From Thermoanaerobaculia bacterium (GTDB lineage Bacteria; Acidobacteriota; Thermoanaerobaculia; Multivoradales; JAIOJS01): 33,099 bases of DNA. Shown here piece by piece: positions 6,795-23,460 of the stretch. Location: assembly GCA_036001185.1 (NCBI GenBank), contig DASYUP010000440.1, positions 1 through 33,099 of the forward strand. Reading direction: 5' to 3'. How positions within the stretch are numbered: position 1 is the stretch's first letter; every line of letters begins with the position of its first letter. The position numbers and the translations under genes were made by a program. Under the pieces are notes generated by a model. That model saw only the letters and a program-made list of their open reading frames with translations. It was not told the DNA's origin and made no database searches.

Positions 6795-9156
6795 GCGGCC
6801 CGCCCGCCGGTCTGGCTGCGCGCCGCGTCCGCTCGATCGCCAGCAGCGACAGCAGGACGCCGGCGGCCGCCAGCGCGAGACCCCACCTCCAGCCGGCGGG
6901 ACGGTAGTCGAGCCGCACGCGGTGCCGTCCCGGCGGCGCCACGAAGCCGAGGAAGCCGCCGTTGACGCGGAGCGCCGGCACCGGCTCGCCGTCGATATCG
7001 ACGCGCCAGCCGCGTGCGTGGCTGACGCTCGAGGCCACGAGGCAGCCGCCGGGCGACTCCACCTCGAGACGGAAGCCGTTGGCGTCGATGCGGCGCAGGA
7101 CGACGCCGCCACCGACCTCCGCCTCGCGCCCCGGCGCCGCCGCGAGCGGCCGCTCGACGACGGCGAGCGCGGCGAAGTCGCGATTGGCGGCGGCGTGAGC
7201 AATGGCCAGGGACTGGCTCGCCACCACCTCGACGCGGCGCGGAGCGAAGAAGAGCGGCAGCGCCGCCCGGTTCTCCCACAGGCGGTCGCTCCCCCGCTGC
7301 CACACGGGCCGCCAGGGCGCCGGCAGAGGGAGGGCCCGGTCGGCGAGCAGGTAACGCACACCGAGGTAGTCGAGGGCCGGCTGCGCCGGCGGCTCCCCGC
7401 CGCCGCCCGCGGCCACGACTGCACCGGGCTGGAGCAGCGTCAGGAATCCCTCGCGTGGTGACTGCCAGGCGCGCGCGAGCACCTCCTGCGGCGCCCAGGG
7501 GGCCATCGGATCGTAGACCCGCGCGTCGGCGAGCCCGTAGAGAGCGGCGAGGTTGGGCAACAGGGCCGGCCCGACGGCAGCGACGCGGAACGGCGGCGCA
7601 CCCCGTCGGGCCGCGAGCAGCCGCGCCACCGCCGGCGGCGCGCCGAGGTCCTCGTCCCCCGGCACCAGCGGATTGAAGCGCACGCCGAGCAGCAGCAGGT
7701 CGAGGAGGGTGAGCGAGACGATCACCGCCGGAAAGGCCCGCCGCGCCCGCGGCACCAGCAGCGTCGCCGCGGCGACAGCGCAGCCCGGGACGGCGGCCAC
7801 CCACCAGAGCCGCTGCCAGAGCGCGCGCTGCGGCGGATAGAGCGTGCCGAGGACGGCGGCGACGAGCAGCGCGCCGGTGGCGAGCCACCGCCCGCGCCGC
7901 TCGGCGGGCAGCCGCTCGAGCGCCAGGCCGGCAGCCACGGCGAGGGCCAGCACCGCCAGCAGGCGCAGCCGCGGCAGCTGCAACAGCCGTAGCAGCGGCA
8001 GGTGGTGGACGACGGCCGCCAGCGGCGGCCAGCCGAAGGCGACGGCGAGCGCCACCACCCCGGCCAGCGCCCACCCCCGCCCGCGCCCGCCGGCGAGGCC
8101 GCCGGCGAGAGCCACCGTCAGGGCAGCGAGCCCGATCCAGGCGGTGCAGAGCTCGCTGTAGTTGGCGGGGGTCCACCACCAGTTGTCGTCGCGCGGGCTG
8201 CCGAAGGCCAGCGGGTCCACCAGCACGCGCAGCTCGACGCCGTGCCACTCGCGCAGCGGCGCGGCGCCACCCAGCGAAGCCAGCAGCACGCCACGCTGGC
8301 TCTCGGGGGCCGCCTCGACGAACGGCAGCAGGCCCGGCGCGGTGAGCAGCCCGACGAGCAACGCGGCGAAGCCGAGCCGCGCCGCGAAGCTCCCGCGTGC
8401 CTCTCGCGTGGTCACCAGCAGCGCGGCGGCGAGCAGCGCGGCAGCGAGGGCCGTCTGCAGCAGGCTCTCCGGATGGCCCGCGAGCGCCGCGCCGGCCCCA
8501 CAGGTCACCAGCGCCGGCAGCGCGTGCCGCTGCCGGCGGTGCAGCGAGACGATCCCCAGCAGCACCCCCGGCAGCCATGCGGCCGCCATGCCCATCGGGT
8601 AGTAGGCCCAGACGACGAGGAACGACGAGAGCCCGTAGCCGACGGCGGCGAGCGCGGCGCCCGCCGGCCCGGCGCCGAGCGACCGCAGCAGCGCGTGCGT
8701 CAACAGCAGGGCGAGCAGCATCTGCCAGGCGGCAGTGACGGTGAGGGCGCGCACCGGCGGCAGGGGCGATGCCAGCAGGTGGAGCGGCGCGAAGGCCGCC
8801 GACTGGCCGTTGCCGAGCAGCGGCTGGCCGCTGCTCAGCTCGTGCGCCCACAGCGGCGCCCGCCCGCGCAGCAGCCGCTCGCGCACCAGGGCGCGGAAGG
8901 GCACCATCATCATCGGCACGTCCGAGAGCAGCTCGTTGCGCGGCCGCTCGGGCGGCGGTCGTGTCTCCGACCAGGGGCTGCGCGCGTAGGCGACGTCGCT
9001 CGCCACCTGCAGCGCCGGCGTCAGGAGGGCGCCACCGAAGAAGCCGCCGGCGAGCAGCAGGTAGGCGCCGGCGGCACGCCAGCTCGGCGCCGGCTGCCAG
9101 CCGCGGACGAGGGCGGCGAGCAGGGCGCCGCCCAGCGCGAAGACGACGACATCCAT
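6772..9156 (-). CDS. YfhO-like polytopic membrane protein (794 aa), paralogue 2
   Basis: Shares long strings with 3569..5935: MMVPFRALVRERLLRGRAPLWAHELSSGQPLLGNGQSAAFAPLHL, and the C-terminal RVNGGFLGFVAPPGRHRVRLDYRPAGWRWGLALA. Same architecture. Confidence 0.7.
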   Translation of the reverse strand: MDVVVFALGGALLAALVRGWQPAPSWRAAGAYLLLAGGFFGGALLTPALQVASDVAYARSPWSETRPPPERPRNELLSDVPMMMVPFRALVRERLLRGRAPLWAHELSSGQPLLGNGQSAAFAPLHLLASPLPPVRALTVTAAWQMLLALLLTHALLRSLGAGPAGAALAAVGYGLSSFLVVWAYYPMGMAAAWLPGVLLGIVSLHRRQRHALPALVTCGAGAALAGHPESLLQTALAAALLAAALLVTTREARGSFAARLGFAALLVGLLTAPGLLPFVEAAPESQRGVLLASLGGAAPLREWHGVELRVLVDPLAFGSPRDDNWWWTPANYSELCTAWIGLAALTVALAGGLAGGRGRGWALAGVVALAVAFGWPPLAAVVHHLPLLRLLQLPRLRLLAVLALAVAAGLALERLPAERRGRWLATGALLVAAVLGTLYPPQRALWQRLWWVAAVPGCAVAAATLLVPRARRAFPAVIVSLTLLDLLLLGVRFNPLVPGDEDLGAPPAVARLLAARRGAPPFRVAAVGPALLPNLAALYGLADARVYDPMAPWAPQEVLARAWQSPREGFLTLLQPGAVVAAGGGGEPPAQPALDYLGVRYLLADRALPLPAPWRPVWQRGSDRLWENRAALPLFFAPRRVEVVASQSLAIAHAAANRDFAALAVVERPLAAAPGREAEVGGGVVLRRIDANGFRLEVESPGGCLVASSVSHARGWRVDIDGEPVPALRVNGGFLGFVAPPGRHRVRLDYRPAGWRWGLALAAAGVLLSLLAIERTRRAARPAGGPLSAAAPR

Positions 9157-9283
9157 GGGACCGACCGGTGGGCGCGCAATCTACCATCGGCGTCGTCGCC
9201 CAGCCCGCTGGTACACTCCCCCGCCACCCTGCGGCCGGCCCGTCGCACGGCCGCGGCTCACCACACCCCGGAGGCTCCCCTCG

Positions 9284-10849
9284 ATGCTCCCAGCCCGTCG
9301 CGCGCTGCTCTCGGTGTCGGACAAGACGGACCTCGCCGGCTTCGGGCGCGGGCTCGTCGAGCTCGGCGTCGAGCTGCTCTCTACCGGCGGCACCTACCAG
9401 CACCTCGCCGCCGCCGGTGTGCCGGTGACCAAGGTGGCCGCGGTGACCGGCTTCCCCGAGATCCTCGACGGGCGGGTGAAGACCCTCCACCCGCGCATCC
9501 ACGGCGGCATCCTCGCCGACCGCAGCAAGCCGGCGCACCTCGCCGCGCTCGCCGAGCACGGCATCGAGCGCATCGACCTGGTGGCAGTCAACCTCTACCC
9601 GTTTCGCGAGACCGTACGCGACCCGGCGACGACGCTCGAGGCGGGCATCGAGCAGATCGACATCGGCGGGCCCACCATGGTGCGGGCGGCGGCGAAGAAC
9701 TTCGCCGGCGTGGCGATCGTCGTCGACCCCGCGGACTACCCCGCCGTGCTCGCCGCCCTGCGCGCGGGCGGCGGCGTGGTGCCCGAGCCGCTACGCCGCA
9801 CCCTGGCCGCCAAGGCCTTCGCCCACACGCAGAGCTACGACGCCGCCATTGCCCGCTGGCTGGGTGAACGCGCGGCGGCGCCGGCGGACGCCGGCGGCGA
9901 CGGGCCGTTCCCCCAGCATCTCGAGGTCTCGCTCGAGCGCGAGATCCTGCCGCGCTACGGTGAGAACCCGCACCAGGCCGCGGCGGTCTACCGCCTGGCC
10001 GACGGGCCGGGGCTGCTCGGCGGCATGCGGCAGCTGCAGGGCAAGCAGCTCTCCTGGAACAACGTGCTCGACGCCGACGCGGCGCGCCGGCTGGTCTCGC
10101 TGTTCGAGGCGCCGGCAGTCGTCATCGTCAAGCACAACAACCCCTGCGGCGTCGGCATCGGCGGCACCCTCGTCGAGGCCTACGAGCGCGCCCTCGCCTG
10201 CGACCCGACGTCGGCCTTCGGCTCGATTGTCGCCACCAACCGCGACGCCGACCTCGATTTCGTGGCGGCGATGAGCAAGCTGTTCGTCGAGGTGCTGGTG
10301 GCGCCGGGCTACGGCGAGGAAGCACTAGCGAAACTCGCGCCGAAGGAGAACCTGCGCGTGCTCGCCTGCCCGTTGCACGCCTGGCGCTCCGGCACCATCG
10401 AGCTGCGTGCCGTCGACGGCGGCTACCTGGCTCAGGAGCCCGACGACGCGCCCGAGGATCCCGCCACCTGGACCTGCCCGACGAGGCGGCAGCCGAGCGC
10501 GGCGGAGCGCGCGGCGCTGGAGCTCGCCTGGAAGGTCGTGCGCCACGTCAAGTCCAACGCCATCGTGCTCGCCAACGAGCACCAGACGGTGGGCGTCGGC
10601 GCCGGCCAGATGAGTCGCGTCGACTCCTGCCGGCTGGCGGTCGAGAAGGCGCAGTTGCCGGTGGCGGGAAGCGTGGCGGCCTCGGACGCGTTCTTCCCCT
10701 TCAGGGACGGTCTCGACGTCCTCGCCGCCGCCGGCATCACCGCCGTGGCGCAGCCCGGCGGCAGCAAGCGCGACGACGAGGTGATCGCCGCCGCCGACGA
10801 GCGAAGGATGGCCATGCTGATCACCGGCCGGCGCCACTTCAAGCACTGA
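9284..10849 (+). CDS. purH: Bifunctional AICAR formyltransferase / IMP cyclohydrolase
   Basis: MLPARRALLSVSDKTDLAGFGRGLVELGVELLSTGGTYQHLAAAGVPVTKVAAVTGFPEILDGRVKTLHPRIHGGILA ... VAQPGGSKRDDEVIAAADERRMAMLITGRRHFKH. The ATG at 9284 follows GGAGG (9270-9274). Confidence 0.95.
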   Translation: MLPARRALLSVSDKTDLAGFGRGLVELGVELLSTGGTYQHLAAAGVPVTKVAAVTGFPEILDGRVKTLHPRIHGGILADRSKPAHLAALAEHGIERIDLVAVNLYPFRETVRDPATTLEAGIEQIDIGGPTMVRAAAKNFAGVAIVVDPADYPAVLAALRAGGGVVPEPLRRTLAAKAFAHTQSYDAAIARWLGERAAAPADAGGDGPFPQHLEVSLEREILPRYGENPHQAAAVYRLADGPGLLGGMRQLQGKQLSWNNVLDADAARRLVSLFEAPAVVIVKHNNPCGVGIGGTLVEAYERALACDPTSAFGSIVATNRDADLDFVAAMSKLFVEVLVAPGYGEEALAKLAPKENLRVLACPLHAWRSGTIELRAVDGGYLAQEPDDAPEDPATWTCPTRRQPSAAERAALELAWKVVRHVKSNAIVLANEHQTVGVGAGQMSRVDSCRLAVEKAQLPVAGSVAASDAFFPFRDGLDVLAAAGITAVAQPGGSKRDDEVIAAADERRMAMLITGRRHFKH

Positions 10850-10857
10850 GAGCACCC

Positions 10858-11517
10858 ATGCGCGCCCGCACAGCCCTGCCGTTCCTGCTGCTCCTGCTGC
10901 TCGCCGGCGGAGTGCGCGCCGATTCGACGCCCGATCCCTGGGCGCTCCTTGGCAAGGCGCGCGCGCAGATGCAGCAAACCGGCGCCCAGCTGTGGAGCTT
11001 CCGCCAGACGTACCTCCCCACCGGCTTCGACCGCGGCGAGGAGGAGACCGGCCGGGTGGCCCTCGACCTGCCGCGCTGCGTGCGCTGGGACTACGACGAC
11101 CCGTACCCCAAGAGCTTCCTGCTCTGTGGCGAGAAGCTGTGGACCTGGAACCCCGGCGAGCCGGCGGGCCATATCTACGACCTCGACCAGGCGCAACCCG
11201 GCCTCGACCTCCTGCTGCTGGCGGTGGGTGACCTCGCCGAGCGGTACGACGCCAGGGCGCAACCCGCGGGCAACGCCATCCGCGTGCAGCTCGTCCCCAA
11301 AGTGGCAGCCAACCAGGCGGCTAGCGCCAACGTGCTGCGCGATGCCGCCATCCTGCTGGGCGCCGACGGCAGCGTGCGCGAGCTCACCTACCGCGACGCC
11401 GAGGGCAACCGCACCACCTTCCGCTTCGCCGATCGCCGGCCGTTACCCAACGGTACCGTCTTCACCCCGCCGGCGAACGTCAAGTGGCAGCGCGAAACGG
11501 GCGCCGATCACCCCTGA
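10858..11517 (+). CDS. LolA-like outer-membrane lipoprotein carrier family protein (219 aa)
   Basis: Signal peptide (LLLLLLAGGVRA|D). WSFRQTY...GRVALDLPRCVRWDYDDPYPKSFLLCGEKLWTWNPG follows the LolA pattern F.Q....G.l.l..P...RW.Y..P......dG..lw.Y.P. It starts 8 nt after the purH stop. Confidence 0.7.
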   Translation: MRARTALPFLLLLLLAGGVRADSTPDPWALLGKARAQMQQTGAQLWSFRQTYLPTGFDRGEEETGRVALDLPRCVRWDYDDPYPKSFLLCGEKLWTWNPGEPAGHIYDLDQAQPGLDLLLLAVGDLAERYDARAQPAGNAIRVQLVPKVAANQAASANVLRDAAILLGADGSVRELTYRDAEGNRTTFRFADRRPLPNGTVFTPPANVKWQRETGADHP

Positions 11518-11573
11518 GCCGCCGGCCGGCCCGGGCGGCGGGAGCGCCGGTGCCGCTGCGCTAGAATCGCGGC

Positions 11574-12260
11574 GTGCCTCGCGGCCGCCTCCCCCCCTCA
11601 GCCGTCCCCACCCTGGCGGCGCTGTTGCTGGCGCTGGTCCTGGTGCCCGGCTGCGCGGCGCACGCCAGCTTTGCCGGCCCGTCCGCGCGCTACAGCGCCG
11701 GCCAGTCGGTAACGGTGCAAGGGGTGGTCAACGACGGCGGTGGCCGTCCCCTCGGCGACCTGCGCGTCACCCTCGAGGCCTCGCGCCTGCGCTTCGCCGT
11801 CTACCCGTGGGGGACCCACAAGCGCGAGGTGGTCACCGGCAGCGCGCAGACGACGCCACGCGGCGAGTTCGGGCTGCAGTTCCCATGGAACGACCGCTTC
11901 AACCACTTCGAGCTGGTGGTGGGCGTGCCGGTCGCCACCGCCGGCGGCGAGGAGCTCCAGGAGCTGTCGCGGCAGGACATCACCCGCCGCGTGCTGCAGG
12001 GCAGCCCGGTGGCAGTGCCGGTGACGCTCGCCGACACCACCTTTCTCGACACCCTGCGCGACTTTCTCGGCTCGCTGCGCACCGCCGAGGAGCAGAAGGC
12101 CTACCGCGAGGGCGGCCGCCCGGATCGCGTCGATCGCGTCACCTACCCCGATCACCTGGAGACCGCCTGGTGGTACTTCCGCCAGGGCAAGGTCTATCGC
12201 TTCCGCGACGGCCACCTCGAGAAGGTCGAAACCTTCCCGCCGGTGTCGCCGGTGAGCTGA
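11574..12260 (+). CDS. Hypothetical lipoprotein with carboxypeptidase-regulatory-like beta-sandwich (228 aa)
   Basis: Lipobox LVLVPG|C. GQSVTVQGVVNDGGGRPLGDLRVTLEA is CarboxypepD_reg-like. The GTG start at 11574 is the only start that keeps the signal peptide, because an in-frame TAG lies at 11562. Confidence 0.65.
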   Translation: MPRGRLPPSAVPTLAALLLALVLVPGCAAHASFAGPSARYSAGQSVTVQGVVNDGGGRPLGDLRVTLEASRLRFAVYPWGTHKREVVTGSAQTTPRGEFGLQFPWNDRFNHFELVVGVPVATAGGEELQELSRQDITRRVLQGSPVAVPVTLADTTFLDTLRDFLGSLRTAEEQKAYREGGRPDRVDRVTYPDHLETAWWYFRQGKVYRFRDGHLEKVETFPPVSPVS

Positions 12261-13329: not shown

Positions 13330-15258
13330 CTACGGCGTGTTGCGCTCGTTGAGGATGGCGAGGGTGATGGTCGCCTGGTCGTCACCGAGGACGTAGCTGT
13401 TGGTGAGGTGCATGCTGGCGTTGGCGACGCCGCCCTCGGCGATGTCGAAGTTCTGCACCTGGTTGTCGTCCTCGTCGTCGCCGCCGCAGTCGTCGCTCTC
13501 GAACATCTTGCCGCGCACCTCGGCGACGACGCTGGCATCCGTCGGGTCGAGGGTCACCCGCACGTCGGTCTCCACCCGCACCTCGTCGCCGGTGCAGTTG
13601 GAGAAGTGGAAGTGGTGCTCGCGCTGGCCTGGATCTAGGACCACCGAATCTTCGAGCGAGTGGGTGCCGATCTCGTCGGAGCCGATGTTCTCGTAGTCCT
13701 TGATCCACACCGTGCCGCGCACGGTCACCCGCCGGTGGGCGCGGGAGTTGTCGGGCCGCGGCGGCGCCACCGGCGCCGTGAGGGTGAGGGTCAGCGCGTT
13801 GCCGGGGCCGGCGTGGACGTCGAAGGTCTGCAGGGCGGTGACCTCGCGCGGCGAGCCGGACTCGATCACCGTCTTGCTCGCCCTCACCTCGTAGCGGCCA
13901 CCGGGAAGCGCGATGAAGGCGGCGTGACCCGCGGCGTCGGTGAGCGCCGCCGGGAAACCGGAGATCGTCACCAGCGCGCTGGCTGCCGGGCTGCCACCGA
14001 AGAGGGTGGTGACAGTGACGTCGCCCGCGCCGGGGCTCTCGCCCCAGCGGTGGACGCGGGTGTATTCGCCCGGGCGGTAGGCCATGTCCTCGGCAAGGCC
14101 GTAGACCCCGGCCGGTGGCAGGTCCCAGCGGGTGAGGTCGTCGGGTGAGACGGCGATGCCGTCGCCGGGGTGCTTCCAGCGGTCGGAGTCCTTGGCGTCG
14201 GGCTCGCCGTCGAAGGCCATTCCCGGCTCGCTGCCGCACCAGTCGAAACCGAAGCAGTTGAGGATCTGGTTGGCGCCGTCGTCGGGGGCGTCGGTGAACA
14301 GGCGCCCCCACCAGCCGGACTTGGCGTAGAAGTCGTTGTAGATCTTCGTGTAGAAGAACTCGCCGGCCTGCTGTCGGTTGGCCTCGGGATAGACGAAGAG
14401 GCCGCGATGCGGAGCCGGCGCGTGCGGGCGATCCCCGCCCTCGACGGTGTCGTCCTCCACCGGCACGCCGGCCGCCACCGTCGAGCTCCAGGCGAGCTGC
14501 GAGCAGACGGTGCCGTCCGGCGCGTTGAGGTTGGCCCAGCCGGCGTCGGAGCCGGCGCGAGCGCCGGGGCCGGACCCGCGGCCGACGATGGCGGCGTCGC
14601 TGTAGGCGAAGAGGCGGTAGTGCCCGTGGATGGCCAGCGCCGCGTCGGCGATGCGCTGGAGGTTGGCGCGCACGGTGCGGCCGGTGCCTGGCACCACGGT
14701 CTCCTCCTGGTCGAAGGGGGGCTTCACCACCGCCGGATAGATCGGCGGCGCCTCCTCGTCGCAGCCCGCCGGATCGCGGTTGAACGACTTGAGGAGGTAG
14801 GTGCGACCGGGGTTTTCGGGATCGATCAGGTAGTGGCCCTCGTAGGCCTCGTCGATGCTCTCGGTGACGGTGCCCGGCCAGCCGAACTTGAGCACCGCGG
14901 GGGTGAAGCCGTCACTGCCGGCGGCATCGATGTAGCGCTGGTCGGCGGCGGTGGAGTGGCGCACGCGGGTGCCGTTGTCGACGATGACGCCGGAGTGCGA
15001 GTAGCGCTGGTTGGCGTCGACGTGGCGCAACAGCTCGCCGATGGTGCCGCAGCCGGGGCTGACGAGGAGGTTGCCCTTGGTGGCGTTGGCGATGTACGGA
15101 AGGCGGTAGTCGAACTCGTCGGTGGCCTGGCAGCTGATGCCGGGGCGCGGCTCGAATGCTCCCGGCGTGCAGATCTCGCCGAGCGGTTGGGGCTGGCTGG
15201 CGCGCGCCGCCAGCAGCAGGCAGGCGGCGAGCACGGTGGTGGTGGTGGTGGGTCGCAT
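13330..15258 (-). CDS. Secreted multidomain protein: permuted papain-like (YiiX/C92- or NlpC/P60-like) domain + CarboxypepD_reg-like domain + C-terminal beta domain (642 aa)
   Basis: Signal peptide MRPTTTTTVLAACLLLAARA|SQ. GNLLVSPGCGTIGELLRHVDANQRYSHSGVIVDNG (His codon 14995-14997) is followed about 160 aa later by DGTVCSQLAWSS (Cys codon 14503-14505). That His-before-Cys order is what circularly permuted papain-fold amidases show. ALPGGRYEVRASK is CarboxypepD_reg-like. The ATG at 15258 overlaps the upstream stop (TGATG); an alternative GTG lies at 15261. Confidence 0.6.
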   Translation of the reverse strand: MRPTTTTTVLAACLLLAARASQPQPLGEICTPGAFEPRPGISCQATDEFDYRLPYIANATKGNLLVSPGCGTIGELLRHVDANQRYSHSGVIVDNGTRVRHSTAADQRYIDAAGSDGFTPAVLKFGWPGTVTESIDEAYEGHYLIDPENPGRTYLLKSFNRDPAGCDEEAPPIYPAVVKPPFDQEETVVPGTGRTVRANLQRIADAALAIHGHYRLFAYSDAAIVGRGSGPGARAGSDAGWANLNAPDGTVCSQLAWSSTVAAGVPVEDDTVEGGDRPHAPAPHRGLFVYPEANRQQAGEFFYTKIYNDFYAKSGWWGRLFTDAPDDGANQILNCFGFDWCGSEPGMAFDGEPDAKDSDRWKHPGDGIAVSPDDLTRWDLPPAGVYGLAEDMAYRPGEYTRVHRWGESPGAGDVTVTTLFGGSPAASALVTISGFPAALTDAAGHAAFIALPGGRYEVRASKTVIESGSPREVTALQTFDVHAGPGNALTLTLTAPVAPPRPDNSRAHRRVTVRGTVWIKDYENIGSDEIGTHSLEDSVVLDPGQREHHFHFSNCTGDEVRVETDVRVTLDPTDASVVAEVRGKMFESDDCGGDDEDDNQVQNFDIAEGGVANASMHLTNSYVLGDDQATITLAILNERNTP

Positions 15259-16847
15259 CACTGGATCTCCCAGCCGCGGCTGGTGCGGCGGATCTTGCCG
15301 CGGCGCTCGAGGTGGTAGAGATCTTCCTGCGTCACCGTGGCGCCGCGTACGAGACCGCGCCGGTTGAGGTCGAGCAGGAAGGTGCGGGTGGCCGCATCGC
15401 TCACGTGCCGGCGCAGCGCCGGGTTGTCGCGCACCTCGAAGTAGAGGCTCGCGTAGGCCGGACGGCCGCTCTGGCTGGTGCCGATGAGGTGGTAGCCGAC
15501 GTTGCAGACGCCCGGCGGGATCTGCGTCACGTCGAGGGTGAGGAACCCCTGGTGAGTGGTCTCGGCGGGGATGACGACCACTCCCGAGAGCGGCGTGGCG
15601 GGACCCGATCCGCCGGTCCCTCCGGTGCTGGGAACCGGCGCTCCCAACCCGCCGGCGCCGCCGAGGGGCAGGGCCGCGCCGTGACCGCTGCTGGCGTCGA
15701 GCAGGCCGAGGTCGCGCCGCGTGGGGCCGGTGCCACCGGGGATGCGCGGCGGGACGACGATGGCGTCGGCGGGCAGCCCCGGCAGGCTCCGTCGCAGCTC
15801 GACGGTGGCCCGCAGGCTGGTGCTGAGGCGCGTCACGGGGATCGTCGTTGCCAACGCCTTGCCCCCCTGGAAGAGCACGCTGGCCGGCGTCGTCGCCGCC
15901 GGCGAGGCGGGGGCCTGCACGTCACAGGAGAGGTTCTCGACCAGCGCCCGCCGGAAGACCAGCGGCTCCTTCTCGAGGTTGCGGATGCGATAGGAACCGA
16001 CCAGGCGCAGGCCGCGCGACTCCATGGCGCCGCTGGTGATCGCCGGCGGCTGCAGGTTTCCCTGCCGCTTGGCGTGGTAGTAGTTGTTGGGCAGCGTCAC
16101 CGCATAGTGGCGGGCGACGCGCCGGCCCGCCGCGAAGCCCGTGGCCCGTGCCTCCCCGGTGACCTCGACGGCAAAGGTCTGGTAGGGCACCGCGCCGTCC
16201 ACGCGGTCGAAGTAGGAGTGCGAGACGTAAGGCTCGTGGGTGGTCGCGATGGCGCCGTCGTCGAAGCGCCAGCGATAGCCACTGAAGGTCTCCTTCAGCT
16301 CGGCGGCGTTGTCGAGGGTGAAGTCGACGGTGTACGGGTGATAGGGGTTGAAGCGGCTGCGCACGAGGATCGCCGGCTCGATTGCGCAGTCCCGCACCGG
16401 CACCTTCACCGTCTTGCTCTGCGACTGGTCGCCGCTGGTGGCAACGACCTGGATCAGCCGCGTCGACGGGTCGCCGAAGAGCTGCAGGTAGCGGTGGTCG
16501 CCGGAGTAGCCGTCGATGGCCACCGATACCCACTGGCCGCTGACCGGTGGCTGCGTCTCCACGGCGACCCTGAAGACCTCGCCGCGGCAGACGCCGTCGC
16601 GTTGCAGGTCCTTGCGCTTCTCGAGGTCGCGGCGGAGGGTGCGAGCGGCGGCCGCGGCGTCGGCCGGCGAGGGTGCCGGCAGCTTGGCGGCTGGCACGAC
16701 GGTGAGCCCGGTGAGCGGCTCGGCCTTGAGCGTCACCTTGGCGATGAGCCCCTGCGCCGCGGCGGCGCGGGGGTGGCCGGCGCCCAGCAGCCAGAGGAGG
16801 GCCGCCAGGGCGGCGACCGGCACGGTTGCTTTCGTCGTCGATCTCAT
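15258..16847 (-). CDS. Secreted PKD-domain-containing protein (529 aa)
   Basis: The internal ATG at 16847 is preceded by AGGAGA. Signal peptide MRSTTKATVPVAALAALLWLLGAGHPRAAAA|Q. PKD-like segment TVDFTLDNAAELKETFSGYRWRFDDGAIATTHEPYVSHSYF...YQTFAVEVT. The upstream 210 aa of ORF 15258..17483 is Arg/Ala junk that overlaps the next gene. Confidence 0.65.
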   Translation of the reverse strand: MRSTTKATVPVAALAALLWLLGAGHPRAAAAQGLIAKVTLKAEPLTGLTVVPAAKLPAPSPADAAAAARTLRRDLEKRKDLQRDGVCRGEVFRVAVETQPPVSGQWVSVAIDGYSGDHRYLQLFGDPSTRLIQVVATSGDQSQSKTVKVPVRDCAIEPAILVRSRFNPYHPYTVDFTLDNAAELKETFSGYRWRFDDGAIATTHEPYVSHSYFDRVDGAVPYQTFAVEVTGEARATGFAAGRRVARHYAVTLPNNYYHAKRQGNLQPPAITSGAMESRGLRLVGSYRIRNLEKEPLVFRRALVENLSCDVQAPASPAATTPASVLFQGGKALATTIPVTRLSTSLRATVELRRSLPGLPADAIVVPPRIPGGTGPTRRDLGLLDASSGHGAALPLGGAGGLGAPVPSTGGTGGSGPATPLSGVVVIPAETTHQGFLTLDVTQIPPGVCNVGYHLIGTSQSGRPAYASLYFEVRDNPALRRHVSDAATRTFLLDLNRRGLVRGATVTQEDLYHLERRGKIRRTSRGWEIQ

Positions 16848-16870: not shown

Positions 16871-17527
16871 CTAGCGGCTGGCGCAAACCTGGTCGATCCA
16901 CAGCTCCTGGCCGCCGATGCGCAGCGTCGCCACCGGGCCGGTGAGCTTCAGGGTTCCCGTCTTGCCGTGCGCCGGCGGCGGCAGCGGTGTGGTGGCCACG
17001 GCCAGCGCCACACCGCCGATCGGCGTCGGCGCCGCCGCGAGCTCGCCGGCGTACAGCGGGCTGCCGTTGACGGCGAGGTTCTCCGCGCCGCCGAGGTCGA
17101 GAAAGCGCAGCGCCACGCGCGCCGGGCGGAAGCCGAGGGCGCGGAAGTCGAGCTGCACGTCGACGTTGTTGAGGCGCAGGCTCTGCCCGGCGGCGAACGG
17201 CCGCGGCGGGTTGACCACCGTCGCCACCTCGAAGGCGGTAGCGGCGTTCGCCGCCAGGTACTTCTCCACCGTCACCCGCACGCGCTGCGAGGTGAAGGCG
17301 AGGTCGCCGGGCGACTGCCCCACCGGCCTGCCGTAGCGCGTGCCGAGCAGCAGCGGCGGCTCGAAGTCGACGCAGACCACCGCCGGCTGCGGCGGGACGG
17401 GGAGGGGCGGTGGCTGGGGGCGAGGCTGCGCCGCAGCGGTGGCGGTGACTGCCGGTAGCCCGCTGCCCAGCAACCCCGCACACAGCACGAGCAGCAGCCC
17501 GCGGGATGTCGTTCGCAATGTCTTCAC
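16871..17527 (-). CDS. Secreted beta-rich hypothetical protein (218 aa)
   Basis: The GTG at 17527 is preceded by AAGGAGG plus 5 nt. Signal peptide VKTLRTTSRGLLLVLCAGLLGSGLPAVTATAAA|Q, then a Pro-rich linker and a beta-strand-like body (FLDLGGAENLAVNGSPLY). G/C third positions. No family recognised. Confidence 0.65.
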   Translation of the reverse strand: MKTLRTTSRGLLLVLCAGLLGSGLPAVTATAAAQPRPQPPPLPVPPQPAVVCVDFEPPLLLGTRYGRPVGQSPGDLAFTSQRVRVTVEKYLAANAATAFEVATVVNPPRPFAAGQSLRLNNVDVQLDFRALGFRPARVALRFLDLGGAENLAVNGSPLYAGELAAAPTPIGGVALAVATTPLPPPAHGKTGTLKLTGPVATLRIGGQELWIDQVCASR

Positions 17528-17582
17528 GGTCGCCTCCTTGTCAGGTGCCGGCGCCATCGCGGCGCCGAGCTCTGTCAGGGAA

Positions 17583-17609
17583 GGCGACGGTGCGGGAGGA
17601 AAGACAACA
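17583..17609 (-). promoter_or_regulatory. Candidate ECF-type promoter (TGTTG-N15-CGTCGCCT) upstream of the secreted-protein trio
   Basis: The minus strand reads caTTGTTGtctttcctcccgcacCGTCGCCTtccc, about 55 nt upstream of the GTG at 17527. The same 5-mer, the same 15-nt spacer length and the same 8-mer occur at 19477-19503. It sits in a locally AT-richer patch. Confidence 0.45.
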
Positions 17610-17622
17610 ATGCGGCCGGAAT

Positions 17623-18291
17623 CTAGCGGACGACGACTGCCGGCCCCAGCTCGACCCGGGCGCCGCGCGCCAGGGCGGCCGCGGCGTCGCGGTCGAGGTC
17701 GGCGGTGGGCGGCGGGAAGGGCTGCTCCCCGACCAGCAGCAGCGGCTGGTAGCTGCCCACCGCGTCGAGCGCCACGATGGCGCGCAGCGACCTGCCGCTG
17801 CGCACGCAAGGCTGGCGGTCGGCGCAGCGCAGCACCAGCTCGCGGTCGTTGCGGTAGACGCGCAGCTCGGCGTGCGCGGCGCCGCCGGTGCTGGCGACGA
17901 GCCGCAGCAGATCGCCCGGCCGGGCCTCGTCGCCGCGCAGGACGGCGGCGCCCCGCTGCACGTCGGCGCGCAGCGACACGCTGCCGAGGTCGCCTGCCGG
18001 GGTGCGGAGAAGCAAGAGGACGGCGAGCGCCGCGGCCAGCCCGGTGGCCAGCACCCAGGGGAGCCACCCTCGCCGCCGCGCCCGGCGGGCCTCGATGCGC
18101 CGCCAGACCTCGGCTTGCCAGCGTGGTGACGGGGCGAGATCGCCCTCCAGCGAGGCGATGCCGGCGCGCAGCCGCTCGTAGACCGCCCGCGCCTCAAGGC
18201 AGTCGGGGCAGGTGGCGAAGTGGTCGTCGAGCGGCAGCCCCTGCTCGATGCGCAGCAGCGCTTCCTCGGCGAAGCGGTTGCAGCGGCTCAT
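17623..18291 (-). CDS. Anti-sigma factor, zf-HC2 type, single-pass membrane protein (222 aa)
   Basis: MSRCNRFAEEALLRIEQGLPLDDHFATCPDCLEARAVYERL carries the H-x3-C-x2-C motif. TM segment WLPWVLATGLAAALAVLLLL. About 120 aa are extracytoplasmic. It lies directly downstream of the ECF sigma gene. The ATG at 18291 follows GGAG plus 9 nt; an alternative ATG lies at 18306. Confidence 0.75.
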   Translation of the reverse strand: MSRCNRFAEEALLRIEQGLPLDDHFATCPDCLEARAVYERLRAGIASLEGDLAPSPRWQAEVWRRIEARRARRRGWLPWVLATGLAAALAVLLLLRTPAGDLGSVSLRADVQRGAAVLRGDEARPGDLLRLVASTGGAAHAELRVYRNDRELVLRCADRQPCVRSGRSLRAIVALDAVGSYQPLLLVGEQPFPPPTADLDRDAAAALARGARVELGPAVVVR

Positions 18292-18298
18292 GGGTTGT

Positions 18299-18358
18299 CG
18301 CTCCATCTGGTGACGCTCAAGAGGGTGACGCTCAAGAGGGTGCCGCTCACGGGGTGAC
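18299..18358. repeat. Four tandem 15-bp units spanning the sigma stop codon to the anti-sigma start region
   Basis: Plus-strand units: cgctccatctggtga (18299), cgctcaagagggtga (18314), cgctcaagagggtgc (18329), cgctcacggggtgac (18344). The two middle units match at 14 of 15 positions and the outer units are degenerate. Confidence 0.8.
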
Positions 18359-18949
18359 GCCTCGCTCCTCGAGGCACCGGCGCAGCGCCGGCAGCGCCCG
18401 CGCCACGCGCGCCTGCAGCGTGGCGGCGCGCTCCCCCGACAGCTCGGCGATCTGCGGGTACGAGAGGTCGAGCTGGAAGCGCAGCAGCACCGCCGAGCGG
18501 ATGCGCGGCACCAGCTCCCGCAGACAGGCGGCGAGGGCGTCGGCGAGCGAGCGCGCCACCAGGCCGCGGTCGGCGCCGCCGCCGGGGTCGGGGCGCTCCG
18601 CCGCTTCGGCGAGGCGCCCGAAGCGCCGGCGCCGGCGACGGTCCATCTTCAGCAGGTCGAGGCAGCGGTGGCGGGCGATGCCGAAGAGCCAGGTGCGCAG
18701 CGAGGAGCGCCGGCCGAAGCCCGCCAGCGCCTCGTACGCCTGGACGAAGGTCATCTGGTGCGCGTCCTGCGCCAGCTCCTCGTCGTCGACCAGCTGCCGG
18801 CAGTAGCGATAGAGCGCCGCTCCATAGGCGCGCATGAGCAGGGTCAGCGCGGCCTCCCGGTCGGCACGCTCGAGCGCGGCGAGGGCCTCCCGCTCCGGGT
18901 CCCCGACCTCGCCAACGGGGTCCTGGCCCTCACCGGCCGTCGCGCTCAT
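18347..18949 (-). CDS. ECF-family RNA polymerase sigma-70 factor (200 aa)
   Basis: Region 2: LLMRAYGAALYRYCRQLVDDEELAQDAHQMTFVQAYEALAGFGRRSSLRTWLFGIARHRCLDLLK. Region 4 HTH: LSYPQIAELSGERAATLQARVARALPALRRCLEE. The ATG at 18949 follows GGAGG plus 6 nt. Confidence 0.9.
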   Translation of the reverse strand: MSATAGEGQDPVGEVGDPEREALAALERADREAALTLLMRAYGAALYRYCRQLVDDEELAQDAHQMTFVQAYEALAGFGRRSSLRTWLFGIARHRCLDLLKMDRRRRRRFGRLAEAAERPDPGGGADRGLVARSLADALAACLRELVPRIRSAVLLRFQLDLSYPQIAELSGERAATLQARVARALPALRRCLEERGVTP

Positions 18950-19052
18950 CGGCCGCCTCCGGCCGAGGAGGCCGTCACCGGCCATTGCCGCCGCGGGATC
19001 CATGGTCGCGCTCCTCGCTCGCCCCTGCTGGTGCCACCCGGCTCCGGCTCTC

Positions 19053-19439
19053 CTAGGGCAAGCCCTTCACCAGCGCCTGCACCGAGTCGCGCGGCGGAAT
19101 CGGCGGCGGCGGCAGCGGGCAGTCGGTGAAGCGCTCGTCGCAGCGGATCCCGCCCTGGCCGGGGGTCCAGCGACCCACCGGTTCGAGGCGATAGATCGTC
19201 AGCTCGCTGTCGGCAGGGAAGCTGGCCGACCCGGTCGTCACCGCCAGCTTGCCGCCTCCCCCCGCGGAGCCGCCCTTGCTCGCCGAGCCGAGGACGAGGA
19301 AGGCGCCGTCCGCGGGCTTCGCCGTCACCCGCACGGTATCGCCGTCGCGCTCGAAGGGCAGGTTCTGCTTGCTGCCGCTGCCGGCCACCGCGGCACCGGT
19401 GACGGCCGTGATCAGAGTGCTCAGCCAGTGAAACGTCAT
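19053..19439 (-). CDS. Small secreted hypothetical protein (128 aa)
   Basis: The ATG at 19439 follows GAGGAGG. The N-terminus MTFHWLSTLITAVTGAAVAGSGS is hydrophobic. It has a Gly/Ser linker, a beta-rich body and a Pro-rich tail (CPLPPPPIPP). Third positions are strongly G/C. Confidence 0.6.
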   Translation of the reverse strand: MTFHWLSTLITAVTGAAVAGSGSKQNLPFERDGDTVRVTAKPADGAFLVLGSASKGGSAGGGGKLAVTTGSASFPADSELTIYRLEPVGRWTPGQGGIRCDERFTDCPLPPPPIPPRDSVQALVKGLP

Positions 19440-19476
19440 GAGGTCCTCCTCTCGGTAAACCACCCTCTGAGGGTGA

Positions 19477-19503
19477 GGCGACGCCGGGGGCAGATTCGCA
19501 ACA
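19477..19503 (-). promoter_or_regulatory. Candidate ECF-type (autoregulatory) promoter TGTTG-N15-CGTCGCCT upstream of small secreted gene, sigma and anti-sigma
   Basis: The minus strand reads ccgTGTTGcgaatctgcccccggCGTCGCCTcacc, about 40 nt upstream of the ATG at 19439. It lies in the 69-nt gap after the CHAT gene. It matches the motif at 17583-17609. Confidence 0.45.
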
Positions 19504-21809: not shown

Positions 21810-21914
21810 GCAGCGGCCCCTCCGAGGGTCGAGCGGGAACGGACGGCGGGCAGTCTAGCAACGGGCGCGACGCCGCACCCTAGGGATGCTCTGCGGGCCG
21901 TCGCTTGTGGCAGC

Positions 21915-22685
21915 ATGCGGCGACTCCGGGCCACCGCCATGGAAGAGACCGTCGTCGCCGCCATCCCCGCCCGCTGGGGGTCCAGCCGCCTGCCCGGCAA
22001 GCCGCTGCTGCCGCTCGCCGGCAAGCCGATGGTGCAGCACGTCTACGAGCGCGCCGCGGCCGCCGCCGGGGTGTCGCGCGTGGTGGTGCTCACCGACGAC
22101 GAGCGCATCGCCGCCGCGGTGGCCGCCTTCGGCGGCGAGCACGAGCTGACGCCAGCCGACTGCGCCAGCGGCACCGATCGCATCGCCTGGGCGGCGCGCG
22201 CCTGGGACGCCGCGGCGGTGGTCAACGTGCAGGGCGATGAGCCGCTGGTCGACCCGGCGGCGATCGCCCGCCTGGCGCTGCACCTGCGCGCGCATCCCGA
22301 AGACGGCATGGTCACCCTCGCCGTGCCGGCCACCGGCGAGGAGCTGGGCAACCCGCACGCGGTGAAGGTGGTGCTCGACCGCGAGGGCTACGCGCTCTAC
22401 TTCAGCCGCGCCGGGATCCCCTACCCACGAGGGGAAGAGGGCGCGCCGGCGGTGCGCCACCTCGGCCTCTACGGCTACCGGCGCGAGACTCTGCTGCGGC
22501 TCGCCGCTCTGCCCCCCACGCCGCTGGAGCGCCGCGAGTCGCTCGAGCAGCTGCGGGCGCTGGAGAACGGCATCCGGCTGCGGGTGTTGATGGTGGAGAG
22601 CGCGGCACCGGGGGTGGACACGGCGGAGGATGCAGCGCGGGCAGAGCGGCTGCTCGGCGGATCGGCGGTCACGGGCGAACGGTGA
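21915..22685 (+). CDS. kdsB: 3-deoxy-manno-octulosonate cytidylyltransferase (CMP-KDO synthetase)
   Basis: VAAIPARWGSSRLPGKPLLPLAGKPMVQHVYERA ... VVNVQGDEPLVDP ... HLGLYGYRRETL ... LEQLRALENG. The start is ATG 21915 or ATG 21939. Confidence 0.9.
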   Translation: MRRLRATAMEETVVAAIPARWGSSRLPGKPLLPLAGKPMVQHVYERAAAAAGVSRVVVLTDDERIAAAVAAFGGEHELTPADCASGTDRIAWAARAWDAAAVVNVQGDEPLVDPAAIARLALHLRAHPEDGMVTLAVPATGEELGNPHAVKVVLDREGYALYFSRAGIPYPRGEEGAPAVRHLGLYGYRRETLLRLAALPPTPLERRESLEQLRALENGIRLRVLMVESAAPGVDTAEDAARAERLLGGSAVTGER

Positions 22686-23460
22686 CGCTCTCGCCGCGGC
22701 GCGTCCCCCACCGCGCCGCCAGGCTCTCATCGCGAAGGGAGAGCTCCACGGTGCCGAGCGAGCCGACGAGCGCGGCGGGCTCGCCGGCCGGCAGCTCGGC
22801 GTAGTGGGTCGCCCAGCGTCCCACCTCATGCGCGCCGACGTGCACGCGCGGCATGGCGCCCAGCGTCACGGCCACTACCCAGTCGCCTGGGAGGTCGGTG
22901 ACCAGGTTGCCGAAGTGGTCGATCCTCGCCACGCGGCCGTGCAGCACCCAGCCGTCGCCGTCGCGCTCGCGCCGCGGCGGCGGGATGGCGAGCCGCACGG
23001 GGTCGGACACGACTCCGCCCAGGGTGTGGGGGCGCTCGCCCCGCAGCAGCGCGGCGGCGATGGGGGCGAAGCGGTCGCGGCCGTGGAACGTCGCGCCCGG
23101 CGCGTCGAGAAAGAGGTCGCGGCGGCTGACCGCCCAGGCCATGCCGCCGGCGGCGAGCTGCGGCGTCAGCAGGCCATTGTCGGGAGCGACGAACTGCTGC
23201 CCGCCGGTCGCGACGACGAGCAGCCGCCGCGCGCTGCCGACGCCGGGATCGACCACCGCCAGGTGTACCGTCCCCGGCGGGAAGGAGGGCGCCGCGCCGG
23301 CGAGGAGGTCGGCCGCCCCCTCGACGTCGCCCGGCGCCACCTCGTGCGAGAGGTCGACGAGCTGGGTCTCCGGCGCCAGCCGCAGCACCGTCCCCTTGAC
23401 CGCGCCGACGTAGTAGTCGGCGAGGCCGAAGTCAGTGGTGAGGGTGAGGATGCGGGTCAT
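22669..23460 (-). CDS. SAM hydrolase / SAM-dependent halogenase family protein (DUF62, SAM hydroxide adenosyltransferase-like; 263 aa)
   Basis: MTRILTLTTDFGLADYYVGAVKGTVL...LVDLSHEV...VHLAVVDPGVGSARRLLVV...FVAPDNGLLTP is the characteristic N-terminal signature. Internal ATG at 23460. Confidence 0.85.
   Translation of the reverse strand: MTRILTLTTDFGLADYYVGAVKGTVLRLAPETQLVDLSHEVAPGDVEGAADLLAGAAPSFPPGTVHLAVVDPGVGSARRLLVVATGGQQFVAPDNGLLTPQLAAGGMAWAVSRRDLFLDAPGATFHGRDRFAPIAAALLRGERPHTLGGVVSDPVRLAIPPPRRERDGDGWVLHGRVARIDHFGNLVTDLPGDWVVAVTLGAMPRVHVGAHEVGRWATHYAELPAGEPAALVGSLGTVELSLRDESLAARWGTRRGESVTVRP

Follow-up and report, generated by a model that had tools for sequence, protein, structure and literature searches.

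A 33,099-nucleotide (nt) stretch of DNA from a Thermoanaerobaculia bacterium (contig DASYUP010000440.1, positions 1 to 33,099; the whole stretch is called the window here) encodes, on its minus strand, a sigma factor of the extracytoplasmic function (ECF) type that is bracketed by two copies of one bipartite motif, TGTTG-N15-CGTCGCCT. We propose that both copies, designated P1 and P2, are cognate promoters of the sigma factor encoded between them and form with it a local, autoregulated circuit, a reading to which we assign a probability of roughly 85% based on sequence comparison. The -35 element TGTTG (extended form TGTTGYGNT) would be read by domain 4 of the sigma factor and the -10 element (C)GTCGCCT(CA) by domain 2, and the fixed 15-nt spacer sets GTT and CGTC 16 nt apart, just as AAC and CGT are in AAC-N16-CGT promoters. 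Once freed from a membrane-spanning, zinc-binding anti-sigma factor, the sigma factor would transcribe from P1 a small open reading frame (ORF), its own gene and that of the anti-sigma factor, resulting in positive feedback, and from P2 the secreted cargo genes sec1-sec2-sec3. The regulon thus defined appears to be local, and we infer that it is this sigma factor, rather than another protein, that binds the motif.

An exact search of the 33-kb window returned two minus-strand matches to the 28-nt pattern, one at 19503-19476 and one at 17609-17582. Both lie in non-coding DNA, and none of 100 dinucleotide-preserving shuffles contained a match. The original prediction, an earlier note made by reading the sequence, had described two identical motifs at these places. 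Search and shuffles bear out the pair itself; of the coordinates, the 5' ends stand, while the 3' ends (given as 19477 and 17583) fell one base short of the 28-nt pattern. The further claim that no other motif with such spacing occurs held as well, as a relaxed search for TGTTG-N13-18-CGTC on both strands found the same two sites only. The relaxed pattern alone is not rare, being matched at least twice in 25 of 100 shuffles, and the significance of the pair therefore rests on the common 8-mer, the identical spacing and the conservation across loci. P1 starts 6 nt past the stop codon of a gene for a TPR-CHAT protein, with its CGTC 44 nt before the ATG of the small ORF, and P2 starts 14 nt past the anti-sigma stop codon, with its CGTC 62 nt before the GTG of sec1. 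Both start codons are preceded by Shine-Dalgarno sites. Transcription is predicted to begin near 19470 for P1 and near 17576 for P2, in each case on the minus strand. No sigma-70-like promoters were found in the block.

The base composition of the window, about 74% GC, and the ten occurrences of CGTCGCCT by itself raise the question of whether the two copies might be a chance match, or what is left of a short repeat or mobile element, and have no function. Against this, the complete pattern was absent from all shuffles, the similarity between the two copies stops at the motif, no longer repeat contains it, and the motif recurs at syntenic positions next to sigma orthologs of only 62-75% identity with flanks that are unconserved. 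The comparative data refute this explanation, and we give it next to no weight.

These comparative data derive from a large protein family. The sigma factor has 957 homologs at E <= 1e-10, and the named ones come from Thermoanaerobaculia or Acidobacteria metagenome-assembled genomes. We assembled 19 non-redundant orthologous Thermoanaerobaculia loci (213 kb; sigma identity 61-75%; referred to by L numbers), obtained from sigma-protein scans of genomes (6 loci) and metagenomes (4 loci), with further ones taken from contigs encoding homologs. They share the gene order CHAT, small ORF, sigma, anti-sigma. Conservation of the motif at orthologous clusters, a check that had been suggested together with the pair, was borne out in this set, with copies that keep register, strand and syntenic position. 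Counting the core TGTTG-N15-NGTCGCC gives 30 copies for the sigma strand and none for the opposite strand, compared to about 0.28 occurrences per fixed spacing expected by chance from the half-site frequencies. At spacings of 13, 14, 16 and 17 nt, the sigma strand of the 19 loci contains no copy, and 15 unrelated ECF loci (112 kb) likewise contain no TGTTG-N15-NGTCGCC. Eighteen of the copies are intergenic, with the consensus TGTTGTg.Ttc..Ctccc.gCGTCGCCTCA. Their profile is bipartite and their spacer partly conserved; upstream of them the flanks are unconserved, and downstream the only signal is that of the Shine-Dalgarno site. All 18 carry CGTCGCCT, that is, a -10 element with the CGT/GTC signature of ECF promoters. 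Across the loci, the distance from CGTC to the start codon is 29-75 nt, and the start codons have Shine-Dalgarno sites.

The copy upstream of the sigma gene is retained and yet changes place. It is present in 16 of the 16 loci with a complete upstream region, in one of them as TGTAG, which agrees with the proposal that one copy is autoregulatory, with the qualification that its position shifts. In about 12 loci, this copy sits within the last 30 or so codons of the CHAT gene, where the codons CAG CGT GTT GCG ATY.GC C.G GGT C.G TCG CCT spell out TGTTGCGAT-N11-[T/A/G]GTCGCCT. The in-CHAT copies read NGTCGCCT in all loci except L034, which has TGTCGCCC; the copy of L003 is TGTTGCGATTCGCCAGGGTCTGTCGCCTCA. 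Four of the codons involved, CGT, GTT, GGT and CCT, are fixed, even though each makes up only 7-12% of the codons for its amino acid gene-wide, so that the joint probability of the four is 7.5e-5 per locus. Because these rare T-ending codons are fixed while adjacent synonymous sites vary, selection seems to act on the nucleotides themselves. The in-gene motif is lost in those loci that encode a QRAAIA..GEPP-type sequence at this place (the window, L026, L031 and L006), and each of them has a canonical intergenic copy. In the window and L026 this copy comes directly after the CHAT gene ends; in L031 its CGTC precedes the sigma ATG by 29 nt, and in L006 its CGTC precedes the CHAT ATG by 30 nt. 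This complementary distribution of in-gene and intergenic copies is what a required autoregulatory promoter would produce. It would also represent a case of promoter turnover, with the autoregulatory promoter embedded in the coding sequence of the preceding gene in most lineages and replaced by an intergenic copy elsewhere.

The second copy follows the presence of cargo. A copy of P2 lies behind the anti-sigma stop codon, usually 5-10 nt past it, in all 13 loci in which the next gene is co-directional (the window, L001-L006, L026, L027, L028, L034, L035 and L036), and in none of the four loci lacking co-directional cargo, where the next gene is either convergent (L031, L033 and L014) or belongs to an unrelated toxin-antitoxin pair (L030). 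Uncorrected for phylogeny, this association gives p = 4e-4 in Fisher's exact test. The idea that the other copy drives an effector operon is thereby strengthened, since the downstream copy is seen only where a co-directional cargo gene follows. The cargo itself is variable. Behind P2 we found members of the sec1 family (window, L002, L027, L028 and L034), a 160-aa family (L001, L004 and L036), a 421-aa FG-GAP protein (L006) and Cys-rich peptides of 47-57 aa with a class I lanthipeptide-like leader (L003, L005 and L035). L004 has two motif copies, each preceding one of two successive cargo genes. Homologs of sec1 that lie away from the sigma module (L040 and L041) have no motif, which argues that the motif belongs to the sigma module and not to its cargo. 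L038, another locus reached via sec1 homologs, ends at a contig edge and does not overlap with L026.

Some features of the cargo regions merit separate mention. The Cys-rich peptides are encoded at 7376-7546 in L003, 2394-2561 in L005, 7379-7522 in L035 and at about 3047-3224 in L004. Their leader, of the kind MKKQ.KRLSLSRETINLLDGD.LT.VNGG, matches NF038153 with 20.6 bits, just under the cutoff of 22. In L005, no LanB or LanC genes adjoin the peptide gene, which is followed by a sigma-54 activator and a Ser/Thr kinase. In L027, the sec1 homolog is followed (8136-12231) by genes for a TPR protein, a caspase-family Peptidase_C14 protein, a 428-aa protein and a DUF4384 protein; the Peptidase_C14 protein is a second caspase-like component, located downstream of the same promoter.

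Conservation alone does not identify the protein that binds a motif, and the pair could in principle be an operator of some other DNA-binding protein, or a promoter of a sigma factor that is encoded elsewhere, being merely linked to the cluster. The long conserved -10 block (CGTCGCCTCA, 10 nt), together with the partly conserved spacer, could accommodate such an additional factor. However, the motif is asymmetric and non-palindromic, and it is strictly oriented toward the downstream gene, as reflected by the strand counts (30 vs 0). Its CGTC box, its 15-nt spacing and its distance of 29-75 nt to start codons are features of ECF promoters (PMC3426412, PMC8103513). Moreover, it is found only with this sigma family, being missing from all 15 other ECF loci, and one copy is always upstream of the sigma gene, as autoregulation predicts. 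Searches against Pfam and NCBIfam revealed no DNA-binding protein in the cluster besides the sigma factor. Taken together, binding by a different factor is an unlikely explanation, and the sigma factor encoded between P1 and P2 is the better candidate.

The original prediction had voiced one worry about this assignment, namely that the -35 element lacks the common AAC core. The sigma factor itself provides an answer. We aligned 120 homologs to E. coli RpoE (its sequence verified against the residue numbers in PMC7776599) and inspected the specificity-determining positions Arg171, Ser172, Phe175 and Asn84 (PMC7776599). The position of Arg171, which in RpoE reads -31, the C of AAC, is Gln in 120 of 120 homologs. 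At Ser172, which reads -34, 105 of 120 homologs have Ala or Val, at Phe175, which reads -32, 102 of 120 have Ala, and at Asn84, which reads -12/-13, all 120 have Asp. The sigma family accordingly differs from RpoE at the residues contacting the AAC core, which fits a predicted -35 element of the non-AAC type. In addition, AAC is common but not universal among ECF promoters, with ECF41 using TGTCACA as its -35 (PMC3426412). A literature search on Thermoanaerobaculia sigma factors or a TGTTG -35 element found nothing relevant.

We also considered a role in RNA, with the motif forming part of read-through transcripts and serving there as a leader or an anti-Shine-Dalgarno element. In the window, the -10 box of P2 (GUCGCCU in the transcript) is able to pair with AGGCGAC over the Shine-Dalgarno site and start codon of sec1 (17531-17589), a complementarity matched by 5.5% of shuffles. 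In L003 (7305-7337), L005 and L035, the box pairs with GGCGACGC, which lies 25 nt downstream from the C in CGTC (p around 0.01). The pairing seen at P2 is possible only in transcripts that come from upstream, and could make translation of the cargo depend on initiation at P2. As a general explanation, however, RNA pairing fares poorly. Of the 18 sites, 13 lack complementarity or have no more of it than chance gives, significance is confined to L003, L005 and L035, whose leaders are homologous to each other, and the case of the window is marginal. The z-scores for folding stay weak, ranging from -0.2 to -2.3, Rfam returned no match, and nothing pairs with the TGTTG block. Both the fixed 15-nt spacing and the relocation of P1 into coding sequence would furthermore be left unexplained by an RNA element. 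We thus regard it as very improbable that the motif acts as RNA, and rate this lower still than binding by a different factor.

Several observations weigh against the promoter assignment. The -35 element reads TGTTG in the 18 intergenic copies, which means that the AAC core present in most ECF promoters is not seen in any of them. Since the sites were found using the motif itself and come from phylogenetically related loci, the counts do not represent independent events. The block contains two terminator-like matches, no more than shuffles give; as no terminator separates the anti-sigma gene from P2, read-through from P1 could already express the cargo. The activity of the in-CHAT copies is less certain than that of the intergenic ones, owing to the T/A/G at the first -10 position, the TGTAG of L030 and the overlap with coding sequence. 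Finally, L014 is without any copy; its contig begins inside the CHAT gene, so that a promoter before CHAT, as in L006, is possible.

The genes of the cluster are compiled in the table below together with the two promoters. The gene assignments of the original prediction proved correct: the middle gene encodes an ECF sigma factor according to Pfam and TIGR02937, the anti-sigma gene is next, and the three downstream genes have signal-like N-termini. The sigma factor carries PF04542 and PF08281 and scores 75.8 bits with TIGR02937, compared to a cutoff of 42.9, with the anti-sigma gene directly downstream; no specific NCBIfam sigma model reached its cutoff. The database gene call is shorter (200 aa, start 18949). 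Among 13 PDB matches, the best relatives have E values of only about 1e-10, and none of the matches bears a DdvS label. Judged from sequence and hydropathy, the anti-sigma factor has an N-terminal zinc motif (Cys4/His24/Cys28/Cys31), a transmembrane helix (75-99) and, in the periplasm, a domain of about 120 aa. Neither of its candidate ATGs (18306 and 18291) shows a Shine-Dalgarno site by eye. In the window, 3.5 tandem copies of a unit of 15 nt, which reads GGTGACGCTCAAGAG on the plus strand, occupy 18309-18360, a region that takes in the stop codon of sigma and the gap up to the start of the anti-sigma gene. In several orthologs, for example L026, L027, L028, L030 and L033-L035, the sigma and anti-sigma genes overlap by 4 nt. 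Compared to this arrangement, the repeat-containing gap suggests that the window has lost the close coupling of the two genes.

Upstream of P1, the TPR-CHAT protein, with a signal of lipoprotein type (..LPGVGAC) and its His642/Cys669 dyad intact, is probably the periplasmic protease and sensor of the module, as its sequence features suggest. A PDB search returned no chain for it at E <= 0.01 and a single, chance-level match for the anti-sigma factor, and the PADLOC defence-system models gave one weak match only, to the CHAT protein. The small secreted protein has no family match in Pfam or NCBIfam. It is poorly conserved overall, and an alignment of its positional homologs revealed that the signal peptide and a C-terminal C-x(4-6)-C-P-x-P-P-P are kept. 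Of the cargo proteins, sec1 has 56 homologs, all unnamed. AlphaFold gives a confident beta-sandwich model (predicted local distance difference test score, pLDDT, 89); the cysteines C52 and C215 form an invariant pair, and the structural matches are weak (E about 1e-2), pointing to the carbohydrate-binding modules CBM29, CBM6 and CBM22. The sec2 protein has no family match in Pfam or NCBIfam and no homolog in the orthologous loci collected. The sec1-sec2-sec3 operon ends against a convergent polyprenyl synthetase gene. A further ORF on the minus strand, at 21855-22829, was set aside as a likely non-gene by eye; it has no family match, is rich in Arg, Gly and His and lies in GC-rich DNA.

Table. 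Promoters and genes of the ECF cluster, with positions in the window.
Feature	Coordinates	Strand	Basis
TPR-CHAT protein, 766 aa	19509..21809	-	Pfam CHAT (1.2e-35) and weak TPR matches; syntenic in all orthologous loci
P1, predicted autoregulatory ECF promoter	19476..19503	-	Exact match; syntenic intergenic copy in L026, the closest relative
P1 parts	-35 TGTTG 19503-19499; 15-nt spacer; -10 CGTCGCCT 19483-19476; extended CGTCGCCTCA to 19474	-	
Small secreted protein, 128 aa, opening the predicted P1 operon	19053..19439	-	ORF with Shine-Dalgarno site; homologs at this position in all loci
ECF sigma factor, 218 aa from ATG at 19003	18347..19003	-	Sigma70_r2, r4_2, TIGR02937
Anti-sigma factor, 222 aa, alternative start 18306	17623..18291	-	Weak NCBIfam match NF052375; syntenic in all loci
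P2, predicted ECF promoter of the secreted-cargo operon	17582..17609	-	Exact match; cross-locus conservation
P2 parts	-35 TGTTG 17609-17605; 15-nt spacer; -10 CGTCGCCT 17589-17582	-	
sec1, first P2 cargo gene	16871..17527	-	Signal-like N-terminus; homologs behind P2 in L002, L027, L028 and L034
sec2, second cargo gene, 529 aa, signal-like N-terminus	15258..16847	-	ORF, hydropathy; starts 23 nt past the sec1 stop codon
sec3, third cargo gene, 643 aa, signal-like N-terminus	13330..15261	-	Overlap of 4 nt between its start and the stop codon of sec2; weak CarboxypepD_reg domain

If P1 and P2 function as proposed, they provide a promoter consensus, together with the residues likely to read it, for an uncharacterised ECF family frequent in metagenomes of soil Acidobacteriota (957 homologs). 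With this consensus, the regulon of the family would become predictable from sequence, and a natural example of a non-AAC -35 element would be added to the ECF specificity code. A bolder synthesis combines three elements: a DdvA switch that is split and acts in trans, an undescribed Thermoanaerobaculia ECF clade with the non-AAC code TGTTG-N15-CGTCGCCTCA (Gln at RpoE Arg171), and a fixed regulatory platform that exchanges its cargo. The exchanged cassettes would be the sec1 beta-sandwich family, the 160-aa family, the FG-GAP protein and the Cys-rich peptides with lanthipeptide-like leaders, and each added cassette would bring its own promoter copy, as in L004. We put this synthesis forward tentatively and consider it rather doubtful as a whole.

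Measured against known systems, the locus resembles canonical autoregulated ECF circuits in its organization. As with E. coli RpoE (GGAACTT-N16-TCAAA) and promoters following the AAC/CGT rule, the predicted promoters are bipartite, have a CGT(C)-type -10 and place GTT and CGTC 16 nt apart. One copy precedes the sigma/anti-sigma operon and another the adjacent targets, and the regulon appears local, as described for many ECFs (PMC7776599, PMC8103513). They differ in the -35 element, TGTTG without AAC, in the Gln, Ala/Val and Ala at the positions of RpoE Arg171, Ser172 and Phe175, and in the unusually long conserved -10 block (CGTCGCCTCA). The ECF41 group (TGTCACA-N16-CGTC; PMC3426412) shares a non-AAC -35 starting with TGT, a CGTC -10 and neighbouring genes as targets. 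However, the -35 sequence is another one, and the first T lies 20 nt from CGTC here compared to 23 nt in ECF41. Moreover, ECF41 proteins carry a regulatory domain fused to their C-terminus and lack an anti-sigma factor, whereas the present sigma factor has 200-218 aa without extension and is accompanied by a separate membrane anti-sigma factor. Given that extension, anti-sigma factor, -35 and spacing all differ, we do not assign the sigma factor to ECF41.

DdvS/DdvA of Myxococcus xanthus (PMC6061681, PMC11506125) resembles the cluster in having several sigma-dependent promoters in one locus, one of them autoregulatory. In DdvA, a transmembrane anti-sigma factor that binds zinc carries a periplasmic TPR-CHAT module as a fusion at its C-terminal end (PMC11506125). 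Here, in contrast, the TPR-CHAT protein is a separate, upstream 766-aa lipoprotein with an apparently complete His/Cys dyad, and the anti-sigma factor is devoid of CHAT. The predicted promoter is TGTTG-N15-CGTC as opposed to the GTAA-N16-CGT of DdvS (PMC6061681), and the cargo comprises secreted proteins and peptides instead of CBASS or CRISPR. With the CHAT module unfused and the promoter of a different type, the cluster is not a DdvA-type system in the strict sense. By analogy with DdvA, release of the sigma factor may involve the periplasmic TPR-CHAT lipoprotein acting on the anti-sigma factor, and the arrangement can reasonably be seen as a trans-acting version of the DdvA proteolytic switch. 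The lipoprotein next to a zinc-type transmembrane anti-sigma factor would then be the two-protein counterpart, in a different phylum, of the fused Myxococcus DdvA. The separate periplasmic protease suggests that DdvA-type activation may exist in two-protein form outside Myxococcota. Overall, the comparative evidence from the orthologous loci supports well that P1 and P2 are the ECF promoter pair of an uncharacterised Acidobacteriota ECF clade, a circuit of an ordinary kind that would leave the basic view of ECF signalling unchanged.

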